Origin: Nitrosopumilaceae archaeon | GTDB taxonomy: Archaea; Thermoproteota; Nitrososphaeria; Nitrososphaerales; Nitrosopumilaceae | Direction: 5' to 3' | DNA length: 64,000 nucleotides | NCBI GenBank assembly: GCA_965208905.1 | Contig: OZ242365.1 | Span: 512,001 to 576,000 of the forward strand | Shown: positions 18,076-61,730 of the stretch, piece after piece | Layout: every line of letters starts with the position of its first letter | Position numbering within the stretch: position 1 is the stretch's first letter | Made by a program: the position numbers and the translations under genes | The notes under the pieces: generated by a model | Databases searched by the model: none | The model's input: only the letters and a program-made list of their open reading frames with translations | Told to the model about the DNA's origin: nothing

Positions 18076-18182
18076 TGTTGTTGCTTGTGCTTTGTGTGTA
18101 TTATGTTATTTGTCCTTCAAACTAATACCCACAGTCTCTAAATTCCTGTGCTTGTGGGGAGGGACCAGCAATCGTAAATATT

Positions 18183-19647
18183 GGGAATTATATACAAAAG
18201 TACACAACCCCAATTCTGAGAGTTAATGCCTGAACCACGGATCGCGTCCATACAACTCCCCTTAAATACTAGCATACCGTATTATATATCATGATACGGG
18301 TAGTTAAGGTACCGCTACGGAGGGATGTGTTGTTTGCAGAGTGGGCGCACCGCACGAATCATGCGTCAAGATATGTGTACAACCGCGCCGTATCAGAGTA
18401 TTTGTTTGGTGGCGAATATAGGAGAGGGTGGTAGTGGACATCCTGCAGCCCTTCAAACTGCCGGGCAAGCTGGATTTTACATCAGGTATGCTGGACGATG
18501 ACTACCATACATATGATTTTGGGCCATCAAAGAATGTATTAAAGTACGGCATGTTCAAGCAGCTTACGGAGTGGCGCGCTGAACATGCATGGGTATCTGA
18601 CTTGCCTATGGTGTTTGGCAGGGGCGCCATACAAGATGCCTCTATCGCATGTAGAAGAGTTGTAGATGACAACTCCGGCCATGCGCCATACCGCCGCAAA
18701 GACGGCCGCATCATACTATACAGTGTAAATCCGCCTGTACGAAAAGGTGAGCACACCATACATATCCCCGGATATGGTATTGTAGAGACCGCCAAGCCCA
18801 TCGATGTATCGTGGGACATGCGGTCATTCAAGATAGTTGATGTCACCAAACGGGTGGACAAGCATACAAAGCCGTCAGACCACATGTTTGAGCTGCATAT
18901 TGCCGTGCGTGTACCGGTCGAGCCACACCATAATACAGGTGTAATGCGTGGCGTCGATGTGGGCGGCAAGCACCTGGCAGTTACTGTCGACACAAATGGC
19001 AATGTTACAATACACAACACCCGCCATAGAGCAATCCTGCGGGAGATTGACGCGCTAAAGAGTTTGCGCGACCGCAAGACACGGCATGGCCGGAAGTGGC
19101 ATATATTGAATGACCAAATAAAGCGGCTATACAGGAAGGCCAACAACATAGCCGCGAACACGATAAATCAGACGATTGCGCAGATAACTAGTGGTGTGGA
19201 CGCAGTCGTGGTCGAGTCGCTCTCCGTAAAGGACATGACCACACATGGTGGGAATTACAAACGCGCTATGAACCGTTCAATGCGGGAGAACCATGTTGGG
19301 GAGTTCCTGCGCAAGCTTGCGCAGTGGTGTGAGATACACAACATACCGCTGTTGGGGGCATCTGCCAAATACACGAGCCAGACGTGCCATGTGTGTGGTC
19401 ACGTAGACTCAGAGTCGCGTATATCACGCGACAAATTCATTTGCACAAATTGTACCAGGGTATTCCACGCGGATGTCAATGCCGCCTGGAATATTCTGTA
19501 TAGGGCGGCGGGGAACGTCGTCCTAAGACGGCCGGGGCACAAGGAGGGCTACAAGCCAACACCTTCTATGCTCCACTCCATACAACGAAGTCGTCAGAAA
19601 AGGCATGAGTGTACAGCCGAGGCTGTGTACTTTTGTATATAATTCCC
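18183..19647 (+). mobile_element. Non-autonomous TIR element encoding TnpB (element A)
   Basis: Perfect 24-bp TIR GGGAATTATATACAAAAGTACACA (18183-18206 / 19624-19647); perfect 8-bp TSD TAAATATT (18175-82, 19648-55). Confidence 0.93.
18291..19642 (+). CDS. tnpB: RNA-guided nuclease TnpB, with a frameshift near 18420
   Basis: N-terminus MIRVVKVPL...ASRYVYNRAV from 18291 in another frame; RuvC GVDVG / VVVESL / HADVNAA; Zn finger TSQTCHVC...CTNC; TATA-like CTTAAATA at 18262. Confidence 0.9.
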
Positions 19648-19676
19648 TAAATATTTGGGTGTATTACATATGAGTT

Positions 19677-20147
19677 GTGGACAGTCATCATAAAATCAAT
19701 TGTACTGTTGATGCACTATATGGTGCTGGCGCCTCGGCATACATCCCCTCAGATATAACAATGACGTATTATCGGACGGGTCGTATTCGTGAGGTGTATC
19801 ATAATGGCACGCTCTTGTGCACTCTGCGTATAGATGGGGGACTTGCCATCACTCTGGACTTTGCGCGTATACTACTGCAGTGTAAGGATTTTGATGAGTA
19901 CTGTATAGAAGTAGACGATGATGCAGCTCCCTTTGTTGCCGAAGGCAAGTCGGTCTTTGCATCACATGTAGTACGATGCGGCAAGTATGTCCGGATATCA
20001 TCAGATGTGCCTATATTGTATAACAATGATGTAATAGCCGTGGGGCGGGCGGTCTTGTCTGAACCAATGATTGCAGGGTCCCGTAGGGGCGTAGTGGTAC
20101 GAGTCAGGGATAGTTTAAAAAGAAGAGGCCGCATATTCTCAACATGA
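19677..20147 (+). CDS. PUA-domain protein (archaeosine TGT C-terminal-like)
   Basis: TGRIR, PFVAEGKSVFASHV, AVGRA, VRVR. Confidence 0.85.
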   Translation: MDSHHKINCTVDALYGAGASAYIPSDITMTYYRTGRIREVYHNGTLLCTLRIDGGLAITLDFARILLQCKDFDEYCIEVDDDAAPFVAEGKSVFASHVVRCGKYVRISSDVPILYNNDVIAVGRAVLSEPMIAGSRRGVVVRVRDSLKRRGRIFST

Positions 20148-41921: not shown

Positions 41922-43341
41922 GGGAATTATATACCTGGGTATGCACGCGTAACATACGCGTACATTCCTAGGTGCTTCATGGCGCTTGATGTCTTGGGTC
42001 GATTGCACGCTTGATTCTCACGCCGCCGTCTGGCGTCCGGAACTGCACAAACAGGTGGCTTCCGGGTCCGGCCCATTTCACGCCTTTCGAGGGCTATTCC
42101 TTCCCCCGCGGGAACCTTCATACCGGTCCCCCGTTGTATGATATTCACCGGCGCATTGCCATCGGCGTTTGCTACATGGTTACATCTAAGGCACTTGAAC
42201 ATCTCCCCATTTCGGTTCTCCTTGGATATGTAGCCGCATATACTGCACTCCTGGCTCGTGTGTTTTGGACTTACCTCTACTACACGGATGCCCAGCCGCT
42301 CTGCGATGGTGTGGATCTTTCGCAGTATTGCATAATGCCGAATGAACCTCATACCGCGGTTCATACCCTTCTTGTGCCTGCCACCGCGCCTGCTCATGGC
42401 CTCGAGGTTGAGCTGCTCGACATATATTACATCCACGCCCTCGCATATCTTCTTGGCCAATAACCACTCTGCATACTCGCGGTCGTTCGCATTACCGCGG
42501 TTGTACTTTTCTCGCTTGCGTTTAATTTTACACGTCGAGTTGGAGTGTTTATTGCGATGTGAGATGGTACGGCGCGTCTCATCATTCCATGTACGGTTCG
42601 TGCGGAATGCGGTTGCTGTATCGTATAATGTTATATTTGAGGCGTTATGGTCTGTCTTGCACACGACGGTCGGATTTGTTATCCCTCTGTCTATGCCGGC
42701 AACAACACCAGTCTTGGCGCGCCGTTCGGGTACTGGTACGTCATATGTTATGTGCAGCCGGTAGATATGGTCACATGACTTGACGTGCCCCCATGACTTT
42801 GGTGTTACACATACCAAACGGAAAGACCTTGAGCCATACAGCCAGTTATGTGGAAACTGATATGGCTGCTCCTCAGACAACTCAACAACACCAAGGCCCG
42901 GCAATGACGCGTGCCTGTTGTCCACAAATCGCGGCTGCACATCACATGATACTGCCTTTTTATTATCGCGCTTTCTGGAGCGGAAACTCAGCTCGCCATT
43001 GCCGTATTTGTTCGAGACATCCACAGCAGTGCGGGCCTGATGGATGGCCGTATTTTGGTAGATGCGCTCCACTGTTTGTAGCCACGATACGGAACGCCTC
43101 ACCTTGGTGAACTCTCTGGAGAGGTCATATGTAGTAAGTGTGGGGTTAGTAAGCAGCCGCTCCACGGCCCAGTTGTACACGAACCGTTGTGAGTCCCGTA
43201 TTTTGGATATGTGACGCGCCTGAGAGCGTGTCAGGTCTATGCGGAAGCCATAAGACCGATACATGTAGTTTTGTATACCATAATACTTTATAAACATGTA
43301 CTCTACAGGACTTGCCTTGCCTACCCAGGTATATAATTCTC
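41922..43341 (-). mobile_element. Non-autonomous TIR element encoding TnpB (element B)
   Basis: TIR GGGAATTATATACCTGGGTA (41922-41) vs GAGAATTATATACCTGGGTA (reverse complement of 43322-41), 19/20; flanks CTGATTTC (41914-21) / TTAATTTC (43342-49), 6/8. Confidence 0.9.
41927..43264 (-). CDS. tnpB: RNA-guided nuclease TnpB (intact)
   Basis: MYRSYGFRI...RFVYN; RuvC GIDRG / IYVEQL / NADGNA; TSQECSIC...CLRC; TATA TTTATAAA about 25 nt upstream. Confidence 0.92.
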   Translation of the reverse strand: MYRSYGFRIDLTRSQARHISKIRDSQRFVYNWAVERLLTNPTLTTYDLSREFTKVRRSVSWLQTVERIYQNTAIHQARTAVDVSNKYGNGELSFRSRKRDNKKAVSCDVQPRFVDNRHASLPGLGVVELSEEQPYQFPHNWLYGSRSFRLVCVTPKSWGHVKSCDHIYRLHITYDVPVPERRAKTGVVAGIDRGITNPTVVCKTDHNASNITLYDTATAFRTNRTWNDETRRTISHRNKHSNSTCKIKRKREKYNRGNANDREYAEWLLAKKICEGVDVIYVEQLNLEAMSRRGGRHKKGMNRGMRFIRHYAILRKIHTIAERLGIRVVEVSPKHTSQECSICGYISKENRNGEMFKCLRCNHVANADGNAPVNIIQRGTGMKVPAGEGIALERREMGRTRKPPVCAVPDARRRRENQACNRPKTSSAMKHLGMYAYVTRAYPGI

Positions 43342-43392: not shown

Positions 43393-43466
43393 GCGGTCAT
43401 AGTATAGCCTGGTTAGTATGTTGGCCTTCCAAGCCAATTACCCGGGTTCAAATCCCGGTGACCGCA
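43393..43466 (+). tRNA. tRNA-Gly(TCC)
   Basis: Acceptor GCGGTCA/TGACCGC, anticodon arm TTGGC-CTTCCAA-GCCAA, T-loop GGTTCAAATCC. Confidence 0.96.
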
Positions 43467-43482
43467 CTGTGGTGTTATTGAT

Positions 43483-48311: not shown

Positions 48312-48543
48312 TTACAATACCCTACTCTTACCCATGGCAGCCAGGACAGCAACGAATGACCCATCGGCAACGAAATAGTAAATCTGACGTACGTCACGGT
48401 GGTTCCACCGTGGGGGCCGTTTTTTGGAACTTTTCCTGACAGGAAATGAGTCGTGAAAGGTGGTCGGCCTGGGGACATCCCTGCTGCCGGACATAGGCCA
48501 GGGCGCCGTCCACGACCTAGCCGGCAACCCCATCGCCGCCCTT

Positions 48544-48667
48544 CCGGCAGCGCGAAACGCAACAGGCAACCCTTGGTAATTCCATACCTAAAACCGTATA
48601 AAACAACATTTTATGCCTAAAACCGTATACCCATATGGAATTAACCCCTTCTACCGTTAATTACAAC
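48544..48667 (+). repeat. Copy 1 of a non-coding direct-repeat module with AAAACCGT(T)ATA boxes
   Basis: CCGGCAGCGCGAA.CGCAACAG.CAACCC.TGGT ... CCTTCTACCGTTAATTACAAC, shared with 57524-57749. Confidence 0.85.
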
Positions 48668-48720
48668 GCACTTGACCAGACATTTACACACAAAAAGCGG
48701 TTTTCTTAGAAAGACCAATA

Positions 48721-50069
48721 GTATTCCTGCTTAAAATCGCTACAATAACCATCCGGCAAACTACTGCAACCGCCCCTGCACCACTGCGCAGAACCCAGTA
48801 GAACTGCCATGAAGTGGTTTGGCGGCCGGTATCTGTCCATACGTGCGCAGCCTCCCCCATACGGCCGGTTTGGCCGCCATACCAGACGCTCAGGCAGCCG
48901 AGGCAGTCAGGTAATCGTACGTTTTAACGGTCTTTATCTCCCCGGTTTCATACATCGTATCAATCGATCTCTGCATGTCCTCGGCGCTCTGGTATTGTCT
49001 ACCGGCGGTATGTCGTTTCTGCTCCCTCCATTGCGTCTCCACAGGGTTGAGATCAGGGGTGTACGGCAGAAAGTATTCCAGAATGACATCACCGCAGAAT
49101 TTCTCGACAGCGTCCAGTACCGCCTTTGACTTGTGATAGCTGGCGTTGTCCAAAAATATCACGCATCTGCCAAATGTACGGTGCGCCTTCCCGATAAACT
49201 CCAGAAAGTTGTCTCCGTTCGCCTTTTCATAGAACGTGTGAAACTCCCGGCCGTGACCCAGAACCCCAAACGTGTAGAATCGCTCGCCGGACAGCGTGGT
49301 CGGCACGGTAATCTCCTCGCCTCTTGGAAGCCAGCCTGACTTGTTGCCCCATCCCACTATGGTGGAGCACTCATCCTGTGCCAGGACTGCGTATCCCCTG
49401 CGTTTGTATTCGGCAACCAACTGTGTAGCTTTTTTTTATATTTCTCTTTTTCCTCCTCGGAGGCGGCCTTTGTGTGTCGCGGACGCGCCTTTCTCCAGGA
49501 GAATCCCATACGGTGCAGCAGGTCTTCCATTCCGCTGCTCTTGTATTTGATGTCAAACTTGCTGTAGACATGCGCTATGACCATGGGGGCGGTCCACATG
49601 CCCGATTCAAAGCCGCATTCGATGGGTCCGGCTATCAGATCCTTCTTTAGTTCCACCAGCCGTTCTGGTTTCAGCTTGCATGCGGCCCCCGGATGCATAT
49701 CGTGGTATCTTCCTGCAAGGCCCATGCGGTGCATGCGGTGCAGCCACTTGCCTATCATCCCAAATGATTTATCCAAGACGGCTTCTATCTGGCGTAGAGT
49801 CATGCCCTCTTTTCGTTTCAGGGCCGCCCGCAGCCTGTTGTGTGCGTTGGCATTCTTTTCTTTCCTGATGGCACTGTTCAGCTGTTTTACACTGACGTTG
49901 GGCATGAATTTGTCGCCCTTGGGTAACCGTTGTGTATTTGTCATTACCATGTATTACAAAATTAGTATATATGCGCCTGATACCTGCGAGTTTTGGTGTA
50001 GTTAGGCATGGTGCCGTCTGGCACGGCAGTTTGCCGGATGGTTATTGTAGTGATTTTAAGCAGGAATAC
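48721..50069 (-). mobile_element. IS630-family insertion sequence, complete
   Basis: 42-bp IR GTATTCCTGCTTAAAATC(G/A)CTACAATAACCATCCGGCAAACT (48721-62 / 50028-69, 1 mismatch); TA duplication at 48719-20 and 50070-71. Confidence 0.95.
48890..49950 (-). CDS. IS630 transposase, OrfA/OrfB joined by a -1 frameshift
   Basis: OrfA HTH (WTAPMV, LHRMGFSW..ARP); OrfB QDE, LDNASYH, PYTPDLNPVE; slippery A-AAA-AAG at about 49429-49437. Confidence 0.93.
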
Positions 50070-50334
50070 TACAGTATAACTCGCCGTCCCGCACACCGAC
50101 CTCGGCTATCATACCTGTGGTGTGGTCGCGCAGCACCGTAGTGTCTCCGTCTATACCTATCTTGTACATTATTGGATTGGACTCGCGCATGACCTTGTCC
50201 TGTATGATGCGCCCCTCAAGCATGTGCGATACATACTTGGAGAGGCTATAGTCACTGTCGTTGTCTTTGTACGACTTGAACCTGTCGTATATCTCCTCGG
50301 GGATTGTTATTGATTTGTATCCTGGTTTTGGCAT
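50056..50334 (-). pseudogene. Small DNA-binding protein (MPKPGYKSITI type) interrupted by IS630
   Basis: RHH-like N-terminus; ORF runs into the IS630 IR. Confidence 0.65.
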
Positions 50335-57523: not shown

Positions 57524-57749
57524 CCGGCAGCGCGAAGCGCAACAGCCAACCCCTGGTGACATTGTATACTAAAAACCGTTATAAACGAATTACATTGTAG
57601 GCGTAAAACCGTTATAAAGAGACGCTGCATGCGACAAAATCACCATAAAACGGCTGACATTGTATACTAAAAACCGTTATAAAATGACATTGTATACTAA
57701 AAACCGTTATAACCATAAGGTATTGACTCCTTCTACCGTTAATTACAAC
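57524..57749 (+). repeat. Copy 2 of the non-coding module, with four 28-bp repeats
   Basis: TGACATTGTATACTAAAAACCGTTATAA at 57557, 57655 and 57685, degenerate copy at 57590; ends CCTTCTACCGTTAATTACAAC. Confidence 0.9.
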
Positions 57750-60437: not shown

Positions 60438-61524
60438 CTAGGGTTTCGGCTTTAGGCGCGCCAGCTTTTGCCTGTATTTTTTATCGTCGCGGTATCCGTA
60501 TAGTTCGCCCCTGGTCAGCATGTGCCAGATGTATTTGGCCATCTTGTTGCCCACAATGCTGCGTGCCACCTTTGGCGGGTGGCTCTTTTTGGCATCCTCG
60601 TAGATGCCCTTCAGATGCGGGTCGTGTTTCCCTGCTATCATGGCTGCCTGCATCATTGTCCATTTCAGGTTGGAGTCTACGTTCTGTATCGTGCGGCCGT
60701 ATTTGATGCTCTCGCCGGACTGGTACGCTCCAGGACACAATCCCGTGAACGATACCAGTTTTTTGGGGGTCGTCGAACCTCTTTATGCCGTCTATGGGCG
60801 CCGCCACCAACAGCGCCCCGAGCGGGCCGAATCCGGGAATACTCATTATGGTTCTGGCATCTTTGTTTTCGTATGCGGCCCCGCAGATGCTCTTCTCCAA
60901 TGTGTCTATCTCTCCGTTCAGATATCTGACGTGTTGTACATACTGCATCATTATTTTTGTGTCGTGCGAATTTAGCGCCAACTTTTCAAGTAACTGTTGG
61001 TGCTTCTCGTTGTGCGTGTTGCCGTGTCCCGTAACTAGTTCATAGTCGTACCTCTCGCACAGGCTGCTCTGTCGGTTCAGGACGCGGGTTCTGTCCCTGA
61101 CCAGTGTGATGCGATGGCGCATCAGATCCAAAAGTCGCCTGGACTCTTTTGGGTAGACGTAGCACTCTGGAACCGCGTTCATTCTGAGCCGGTCCGCCAG
61201 CTTCCTAGCGTTGAGCTTGTCCGTCTTGACGCCGGACTGGGCCATCTTCATTCGAATCGGATTTCCCAAAATGATGGGTATTCTGTGCTCTTCAAACGCT
61301 TCGTATGTCTTCATCCACATTTTTGATGTTGACTCGCACACGGCGCTGCATGTGCCGTACTTTGACAGTACAGTCTTGGCTAATTTGTCTGCATCCTCGC
61401 GCGTATTTTTGTATTTCATCTGCTCCAAAACGTTGCCGCCACTGTCCATGATACAAACGGCGCAGATTCGCTTTCCTATATCGATTCCAACGTATTTTAT
61501 CGTGTCTATTGTTACGCAATTCAT
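60438..61524 (-). pseudogene. IS110-family recombinase with a +1 frameshift at about 60765
   Basis: YVGIDIG, VCEST, KTDKLNA, SIPGFG; extra C in a C5 run, whose removal restores DDPKKLVSFTGLCP...QSG; Shine-Dalgarno AGGAGGTGA upstream. Confidence 0.88.
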
Positions 61525-61539
61525 TTTTTTCTCACCTCC

Positions 61540-61730
61540 TTTTTCTTTTGGTTGGCAAGCAGCAAGGCTACAATCACCTATCAGAGCTCGAAGCCCACTA
61601 AAGTCGTAGCTTGACTGTCCCCATTCACTCCGGAGAGCTCGAAGCCCATGGAAACAAAGGGGTCTGCTTACCGCTCTCCACACGGTGAACGCGAATTTAC
61701 TCGCTTTCACTCTTAGCCAAAGCATCTGAG
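61540..61730 (-). ncRNA. Candidate IS110 bridge RNA in the 5' non-coding end
   Basis: About 200-nt non-coding region with a 15-nt direct repeat TGGGCTTCGAGCTCT (61583-97, 61634-48) and a GGAGAGC/GCTCTCC stem. Confidence 0.5.

Follow-up and report, generated by a model that had tools for sequence, protein, structure and literature searches.

The DNA analysed here (the window) is a stretch of 64,000 bp from a Nitrosopumilaceae archaeon (GenBank assembly GCA_965208905.1, contig OZ242365.1, bp 512,001-576,000 of the forward strand). It holds two tnpB genes only, each on a short element bounded by terminal inverted repeats (TIRs) and 8-bp target site duplications (TSDs): element A (18183–19647, plus strand) and element B (41922–43341, minus strand). 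A first-pass annotation of the window had claimed that in both elements the stop codon of tnpB, a stem-loop and the right TIR are superimposed; this was borne out by the ends of the open reading frames (ORFs) and the predicted folds of both elements and, for element A, by the TIR coordinates.

Element A is preceded by its left TSD (TAAATATT, 18175–18182), which is present in single copy in the corresponding empty site of a sister genome of the same genus, G005. Directly 5' of this TSD lies the motif ATCG (18171–18174), which resembles a target-adjacent motif (TAM) and the G of which (18174) is also found in the empty site. The left TIR comprises 24 nt (18183–18206), with an outer 12 nt, GGGAATTATATA, common to IS1595-type elements. 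The tnpB gene (family A, 18428–19642) encodes 404 amino acids with the Pfam domains OrfB_IS605 and Cas12f1-like_TNB. Its RuvC-III Asp codon is located at 19472–19474, and 55 codons later the frame ends in TGT ATA TAA (19634–19642), five bases before the last base of the element (19647). The stop codon TAA (19640–19642) is contained in the right TIR (19624–19647), the inner part of which also forms the 3' arm of a terminal hairpin (19603–19636, AGTGTACAGC-CGAG-GCTGTGTACT). RNAfold gave this hairpin a free energy of -16.2 kcal/mol (z -3.0, with 3 of 200 shuffled sequences equally stable) and left the last 11 nt to the terminus unpaired. Known TnpB biology leads to the prediction that the right TSD (19648–19655) and the adjoining flank supply the guide segment (19648–19667). 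The combination of a stop codon in the TIR and a hairpin was found in 15/15 full-length family-A copies of the host genome (G000) and in three solo right-end fragments. In run X4, a contig of low depth (2.2, versus about 200 elsewhere) joins position 18201 to 19629, skipping 1427 nt; this could be a TIR-TIR deletion derivative, a miniature inverted-repeat transposable element (MITE) or an assembly artefact.

The tnpB gene of element B (family B) runs from 43264 to 41927 on the minus strand and ends in GGT ATA TAA (41935–41927, stop codon 41929–41927), with the terminus of the element at 41922. Its hairpin (41973–41933) was more stable than all 200 shuffled sequences (RNAfold, -25.4 kcal/mol, z -4.4). 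The TSDs are GAAATTAA (43349–43342) and GAAATCAG (41921–41914), and the empty site in G005 carries GAAATCAG once. The copies of subfamilies B1 and B2 show the same combination of stop codon, hairpin and TIR, in B2 with the TAA 14 nt before the end; the different right TIR of B2 gives a weaker hairpin (-13 to -16 kcal/mol). The left end of element B has a tRNA-Gly(TCC) gene (43393–43467) at a distance of 52 nt. Judged by the empty site in G005, the insertion beside this tRNA gene is shown to be recent.

The TnpB protein and its distribution

The TnpB proteins of elements A and B both scored above the cut-offs of Pfam PF01385 and PF07282, and the best PDB matches of the family-A protein were TnpB and Cas12f. 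Residues D176, E262 and D348, as well as C319/C322/C338/C341, are invariant in 5/5 aligned TnpB proteins (56–100% identity); judging from these residues, the family-A nuclease is catalytically intact.

The host genome (2.21 Mb, single contig) contains 61 TnpB matches, including the 15 full-length family-A copies at 79–100% protein identity. In a scan of the genome collection with protein alignment, close relatives of the protein (55–69% identity) were confined to metagenome-assembled genomes of Nitrosopumilaceae or Cenarchaeum, and elsewhere TnpB matches reached at most about 30% identity over long matches. These are too distant to provide a wider set for the analysis of covariation. The 22-nt left terminus had no match in a scan of metagenomes.

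No match to the Y1 transposase TnpA (PF01797) was found in the host genome, which is 99.6% complete, while 6 of 14 control genomes were positive. Much of the TnpB complement of this genome may therefore ride on TIR-type elements. Other TnpB families in the host genome, approximately 30% identical to family A, are bounded by unrelated TIRs of 13–42 nt (for example G000:C1 2210123–2210992, 250912–251766 and 768364–769128), and at least one TnpB family with an unrelated TIR has an 8-bp TSD, GTTCAGAG.

Mobility and IS1595-type ends

The terminus GGGAATTATATA occurs 21 times on each strand of the host genome. It bounds family A, subfamily B1, a further TnpB family (D), small MITE-like elements and two transposase-bearing elements. 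Four elements of 2.1–2.8 kb in the host genome encode intact IS1595-type transposases with the domains DDE_Tnp_IS1595 (E ~1e-40) and Zn_ribbon_IS1595; two of them share all 12 terminal nt with element A, and the other two, a 2.1-kb pair, only the first 10. The inner TIRs of these transposase elements differ from those of the TnpB elements. Since only the outer 10–12 nt of the TIR are shared, we infer, rather than observe, that the resident transposases move A and B in trans. The two elements with all 12 terminal nt (G000:C1 1043578–1046414 and 1770047–1772736) carry as a passenger a gene for a fusion of a DNA methylase and an HNH nuclease; one copy has this gene intact, the other has it split.

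Duplications of 8 bp were present at all elements bounded by the IS1595-type terminus, and 8 bp is the typical TSD length of the IS1595 family in ISfinder. All 13 paired family-A elements had at least 7 of 8 matching TSD positions (12 had 8/8), and a 641-bp deletion derivative of family A had 6/8. Empty sites with a single 8-mer were found in G005, whose flanks are approximately 86–99% identical to those of the host, for eight family-A elements, three family-B elements, one transposase element and one MITE, both elements of the window included. G005 lacks families A and B and has five IS1595-type transposases at 59–67% identity. These empty sites show that A and B have been recently active. 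The DDE-type transposition proposed in the first-pass annotation is supported by the TIRs and TSDs, and a candidate IS1595-type transposase acting in trans has now been identified. We are confident that A and B belong to the IS1595 type (DDE), as non-autonomous elements that carry TnpB as cargo.

In some copies the TSDs were swapped or unmatched (G000:C1 1455266–1457300 and 2049471–2051500, and family-A copies at 116549, 1024220 and 1895580), and the 8-mer to the right of one family-D copy is found again to the left of the other. Such TSDs point to recombination between dispersed copies, and thereby to genome rearrangements.

The predicted RNA module at the right end

The last 210 nt of 16 family-A copies were aligned with those of seven copies from genomes G006 and G001 (56–58% protein identity). 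RNAalifold predicted three helices inside the reading frame. In element A, helix 1 has 8 bp and the loop GGGAA (19503–19523), and a long-range helix 2 (19527–19532 with 19590–19595) encloses helix 3 (19534–19538 with 19570–19574). In helix 1, two of the eight pairs change on both sides and 98.4% of the cells are paired; helix 2 has compensatory changes in two of six pairs (AU:16/GC:7 and GU:10/GC:6/CG:6/UG:1). Over the 19 helix pairs, standard pairs make up 98.9% of 437 cells, compared to 36–56% when the partners were slid by 1–3 columns, and pairs changed on both sides number 4, compared to 0–1. The covariation score of the helices was matched by none of 500 shuffles.

The terminal hairpin was left out of the scoring of the alignment because of indels, and its variants were folded singly. 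It formed in all seven (two of family A, two of G006, two of G008 and one of B1), ending 11–12 nt before the terminus, with arms of the outer helix that vary between variants (CAUGAG/CUUUUG, GAUAAG/CUUAUC and CAUGG/CUAUG). Its geometry was present at 12/12 TnpB right ends, and neither at the matching left ends nor at the six ends of three transposase-only elements. A comparison across copies, put forward with the original description as a check, has revealed an RNA-like structure at the 3' end, conserved and covarying, that ends in hairpin and TIR.

In the 15 family-A genes, synonymous diversity in the last 45 codons is 0.05–0.12, versus 0.09–0.41 (mostly 0.13–0.25) in 24 upstream windows. In the last 15 codons nonsynonymous diversity (0.19) exceeds synonymous diversity (0.05), which indicates that the nucleotides, and not the protein, are under constraint. 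The loop GGGAA of helix 1 (19511–19515) is complementary to the terminal UUCCC in family A; both are invariant, so that covariation cannot speak to this possible pseudoknot.

The structure at the 3' end is likely to be the scaffold of an omegaRNA. Alternatively, it might serve as a transposase-binding or other DNA-level end structure, as a terminator or as an mRNA-stability element of a passenger gene, with no role in homing by TnpB. Such a function would fit the relatives in G006, where the hairpin has a palindromic inner helix that falls in a 36-nt TIR and is thus present at both ends. It fits less well with families A and B1, which have the hairpin at the right end only, and with the transposase elements, which have none at their ends. 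Moreover, helices 1–3 covary and form part of the reading frame, 50–145 nt inward of the terminus; none of the aligned copies has lost a catalytic residue; and the position of the structure agrees with that of the omegaRNAs in the available accounts of characterised TnpBs. We therefore regard a function unrelated to a guide as very unlikely.

Three solo right-end remnants of family A (G000:C1 1493807–1494010, 1694379–1694545 and 2197132–2197329) keep only the last 165–196 nt, corresponding to the predicted RNA module, together with the TIR. In all three the 3' arm of the hairpin has C in place of a G, compensated in one by a change in the 5' arm. By their sequence, they could be orphan guide-RNA genes or products of decay.

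The flank motif and the predicted guide

The flanks of the elements were compared in the orientation of tnpB, against a background G frequency of 0.23. In the host genome, the base directly 5' of the left TSD (position -1) was G in 14/14 family-A insertions with paired TSDs, and across G000, G006 and G008 in 20/24 (binomial p=6e-10). The mirror base, C at +1, was present in 4/24. Further left ends from G008 had the G in 3/3 cases, and the mirrored right ends in 1/6. The same G was found in 3/3 insertions of family D, which is 28% identical to A and has a similar TIR. Family A also has T at -3 (15/24) and A at -4 (13/24), with weak mirrored A/T preferences at +3 and +4 (10/24 and 11/24). Insertion does not create the G, since it is already present in 7/8 of the G005 empty sites of family A.

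The annotation had further proposed that the guide consists of the TSD and the right flank and targets the empty allele, and that the use of a TAM must be relaxed. A real empty allele that matches the predicted guide was found in G005, where the site of element A reads ...AATCG TAAATATT GAGG... The only full match of right TSD plus flank is the empty allele; the occupied allele has ...TTCCC where the empty allele has the left flank. The guide would start at TSD position 1. For family A the second proposal found no support: the G at -1 is strand-specific and is joined by T at -3 and A at -4, which makes a relaxed use of the TAM improbable in this family. A motif 5' of the left TSD, which the annotation had suggested looking for, is found in family A (20/24 G) and not in family B (0/7). 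On balance we slightly favour the view that the flank motif of family A, 5'-(A)TNG, is a TAM.

Two other readings of the flanks have to be considered. The omegaRNA could be real and its TAM relaxed or absent, with the G resulting from a TnpB-independent target or orientation bias of the transposition complex. Family B, without a motif in seven insertions, would agree with this, and the weak mirrored A/T at +3 and +4 hints at a target preference derived from the transposase. However, with two TIRs that are identical over 24 nt, it is hard to see how a DDE dimer could favour one side. Among transposase-only elements with perfect TSDs, G was found in 2/7 cases and in 2/7 on the mirror side, near the background of 23%, and the mirror base in family A is at background as well. 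We consider this explanation unlikely.

In the second reading the TSD itself, a relaxed A/T-rich 8-mer, would be the TAM, the 3' TSD would be part of the scaffold and the guide would begin after the TSD. The TSDs of family A are indeed A/T-rich, with A or T at position 2 in 24/24, and many TnpB TAMs are A/T-rich. Such an arrangement has been described for Fanzors, for which the available text of a 2026 review (PMC13565253) takes the 5' TSD as part of the TAM and places the 3' TSD within the scaffold. Yet TSD positions 5–8 are A/T-rich without a defined motif, a variable 8-mer would be a poor scaffold element, and the strand-specific G at -1 (20/24) lies outside the TSD and is left unexplained. 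A logic like that of the Fanzors thus appears improbable here.

Two further ideas were rejected. A fixed guide, with a scaffold that extends no further than the hairpin and the 12-nt terminus as an unchanging guide for the cutting of transposon ends, would target every copy of the element itself and leaves the flanking G unexplained. The idea that the empty alleles of G005 have escaped by mutation in TAM or seed was dropped because G005 lacks the nuclease and no such pressure is expected. Of these eight alleles, four are identical over at least the first 16 target positions; the remaining four show, one each, T at -1, a change at target position 2, a change at position 8 and a cluster of changes at 9–15.

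Proposed mechanism

The explanation that accounts best for these observations, and that we hold to be rather probable, is that of non-autonomous IS1595-type elements with tnpB and a guide-RNA gene, the copies of which are retained through a TAM filter. In such elements the transposase gene would have been replaced by a catalytically intact tnpB and a guide-RNA gene, and IS1595-type transposases encoded elsewhere would act in trans on the shared terminus, producing the 8-bp duplications. The last ~150–190 nt of the element would have three roles, as a dispensable C-terminal tail of TnpB, as the omegaRNA scaffold (three helices and the terminal hairpin) and as the right TIR. Read-through transcription past the terminus would append the right TSD and flank as the guide. 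This guide would match the unoccupied allele, in which the left flank runs up to a single copy of the TSD; the end of that flank in family A, 5'-(A)T-N-G, would act as the TAM, and the occupied allele, with ...TTCCC before the target, would be spared.

A DDE dimer cannot orient a one-sided preference on two TIRs that are identical over 24 nt. As the DDE enzyme cannot choose the motif, the one-sided enrichment most likely arises after insertion. Restored empty alleles could come from excision and repair across the 8-bp repeats. Copies adjacent to a TAM would be retained since TnpB would cut any restored empty site, after which either the insertion is rebuilt from a sister copy or the cell is lost; copies at other sites would be lost or move on. 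A tentative extension, which we put at somewhat less than an even chance, is that TnpB is an anchor or addiction module of a cut-and-paste DDE transposon: the transposase would insert irrespective of a TAM, and only copies with 5'-TNG immediately upstream of the duplicated 8-mer would be kept. If true, these DDE insertion sites would bear the first natural footprint of a TAM filter. In a bolder variant, TnpB bound at the TAM would help to choose and orient the insertion site.

Several observations count against the proposed mechanism. The resident transposase elements have inner TIRs of their own, which leaves mobilisation in trans a matter of inference. The seven insertions of family B have neither the G at -1 nor any other motif that we could see, and 4/24 left flanks of family A lack the G; two of these belong to copies with unmatched TSDs, and one of the four becomes G if the TSD is read as 7 bp. 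A simple homing advantage between two chromosomes seems too weak to produce 14/14 G. In element A, five of the seven bases at 19656–19662 (positions 9–15 from the start of the TSD) differ from the G005 empty site (L137 1509–1515), while the 400-nt right flank is 95.5% identical overall; chance and a repair scar cannot be told apart in this single case. The covariation separates mainly two clades (the 16 host copies versus the seven of G006 and G001) and so represents few independent events, and the structure, itself predicted from this alignment, has an advantage over the slid controls for that reason. No Rfam family reached its gathering score in the window, and none had E <0.1 in 19300–19720. 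Finally, three sponge metatranscriptome runs contain 5–10% of the query words, and one contig covers 19552 to the right end and continues into the flank of a different copy; as the contigs from these RNA libraries, at depth 3–6, cover scattered parts of the element and reveal neither strand, ends nor transcription, the match supports nothing.

Other mobile elements and repeats in the window

A third element with TIRs (48719–50071, minus strand) is probably the one that had been described, next to A and B, with a frame that stops in the TIR. That description was wrong. The element is of IS630 type and not part of the TnpB system; it has TIRs of 44 nt (98% complementary) and a frameshifted transposase with HTH_33 and DDE_3 domains, and the last of its ORFs stops at 48890, 128 nt before the TIR arm (48719–48762) is reached. 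The transposase is split into an HTH_33 ORF (49950–49357) and a DDE_3 ORF (49420–48890), which overlap in different frames. A run of T at approximately 49433–49440 is associated with the overlap of the two ORFs, and the frameshift could be programmed or the result of decay.

An IS110-family transposase gene (DEDD_Tnp_IS110) is located at 60481–61725 on the minus strand, which brings the kinds of mobile element in the window to at least four. A direct repeat of 29 nt occurs four times (83–100% identical) at 57557–57713, downstream of a pentapeptide-repeat gene. Blocks of 43–49 nt with 84–91% identity are common to this region and to 48535–48667, which lies 9 kb upstream, just left of the IS630-type element.

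Comparison with known systems

TnpB is understood mainly in IS605 and IS607 elements, in which the target site of the transposase is the TAM and excision is scarless. According to the available text of PMC13565253, TAM-dependent nucleases fit poorly with DDE transposases, which may explain the rarity of such pairings in prokaryotes. Family A offers a natural test case: it has been active recently (at least 15 copies), its empty sites are preserved in a sister genome, a candidate transposase has been identified, and its elements combine a compact predicted RNA module with a one-sided flank motif. It raises the questions of how a guide nuclease serves a transposon that does not choose its TAM, and whether the bias is made at insertion or by later selection. 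In addition, a nuclease of ~400 amino acids with a possible short TNG-type TAM may be of interest to tool builders.

Six branches of DDE-associated TnpBs with inverted terminal repeats (DDE-1 to DDE-6) are described in the available parts of Altae-Tran et al. (2023, PNAS, PMC10691335), with tnpB genes that end at most 250 bp from the terminus of the transposon and solo TnpBs that are probably mobilised in trans. The elements described here resemble these branches in being bounded by TIRs, in having the 3' end of tnpB near the end of the transposon (here 5 nt) and in occurring as solo TnpB elements with ends like those of transposase-bearing elements, suggestive of mobilisation in trans. As TIR-bounded TnpBs of this kind have been published, the superposition of stop codon, hairpin and TIR is a compact instance of a known arrangement. 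The transposase families named there are others: the main text of that paper names only IS630 (for DDE-6) and does not contain the term IS1595, and the list in the available part of the review (PMC13565253) comprises ISL2, IS630 and IS1031. A literature search by title and abstract found no published TnpB-IS1595 element, and in a search for Cenarchaeum and TnpB no paper naming Cenarchaeum was among the matches listed. The available parts of PMC10691335 report no TAM-like flank motif beside a variable TSD. By comparison with those parts, the one-sided G at -1 beside a variable TSD is new.

With the IS200/IS605 elements (IS1341 group and ISDra2 type) A and B share the nuclease family. In the accounts available to us, the omegaRNA of those elements covers the end of tnpB and obtains its guide from the flank on the right, and the nuclease targets the vacant site; the same is predicted for A and B. 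Those elements, however, have no TIRs or TSDs; they have subterminal hairpins and a Y1 TnpA, the target site of which is the TAM. Elements A and B have 24-nt TIRs and 8-bp TSDs, no Y1 TnpA was found in their genome, and the motif is not part of the target that is duplicated. Their TIRs and TSDs, together with the lack of the Y1 enzyme, exclude membership of IS200/IS605.

Fanzor1 proteins in eukaryotic DDE transposons (Mariner/Tc1, hAT and others) are likewise TnpB-type nucleases carried as passengers of transposons with TIRs and TSDs, and their guide RNA overlaps the right TIR, as stated in the available text of PMC10530073. Fanzors come from eukaryotes or viruses and have an RNA that extends past the ORF; their short, fixed TSD doubles as TAM according to the available part of PMC13565253. 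In contrast, A and B are archaeal, with an ORF that reaches into the TIR and a variable 8-mer as TSD, 5' of which the motif is located.

The closest agreement in the ends is with the IS1595 family: the TSD is 8 bp, the termini start with GG, and the sister elements encode transposases with a zinc ribbon and an ISXO2-like DDE domain, some of them carrying passenger genes. Unlike these, A and B are without a transposase; their cargo is an RNA-guided nuclease, with the predicted RNA gene fused to the right end of the element.

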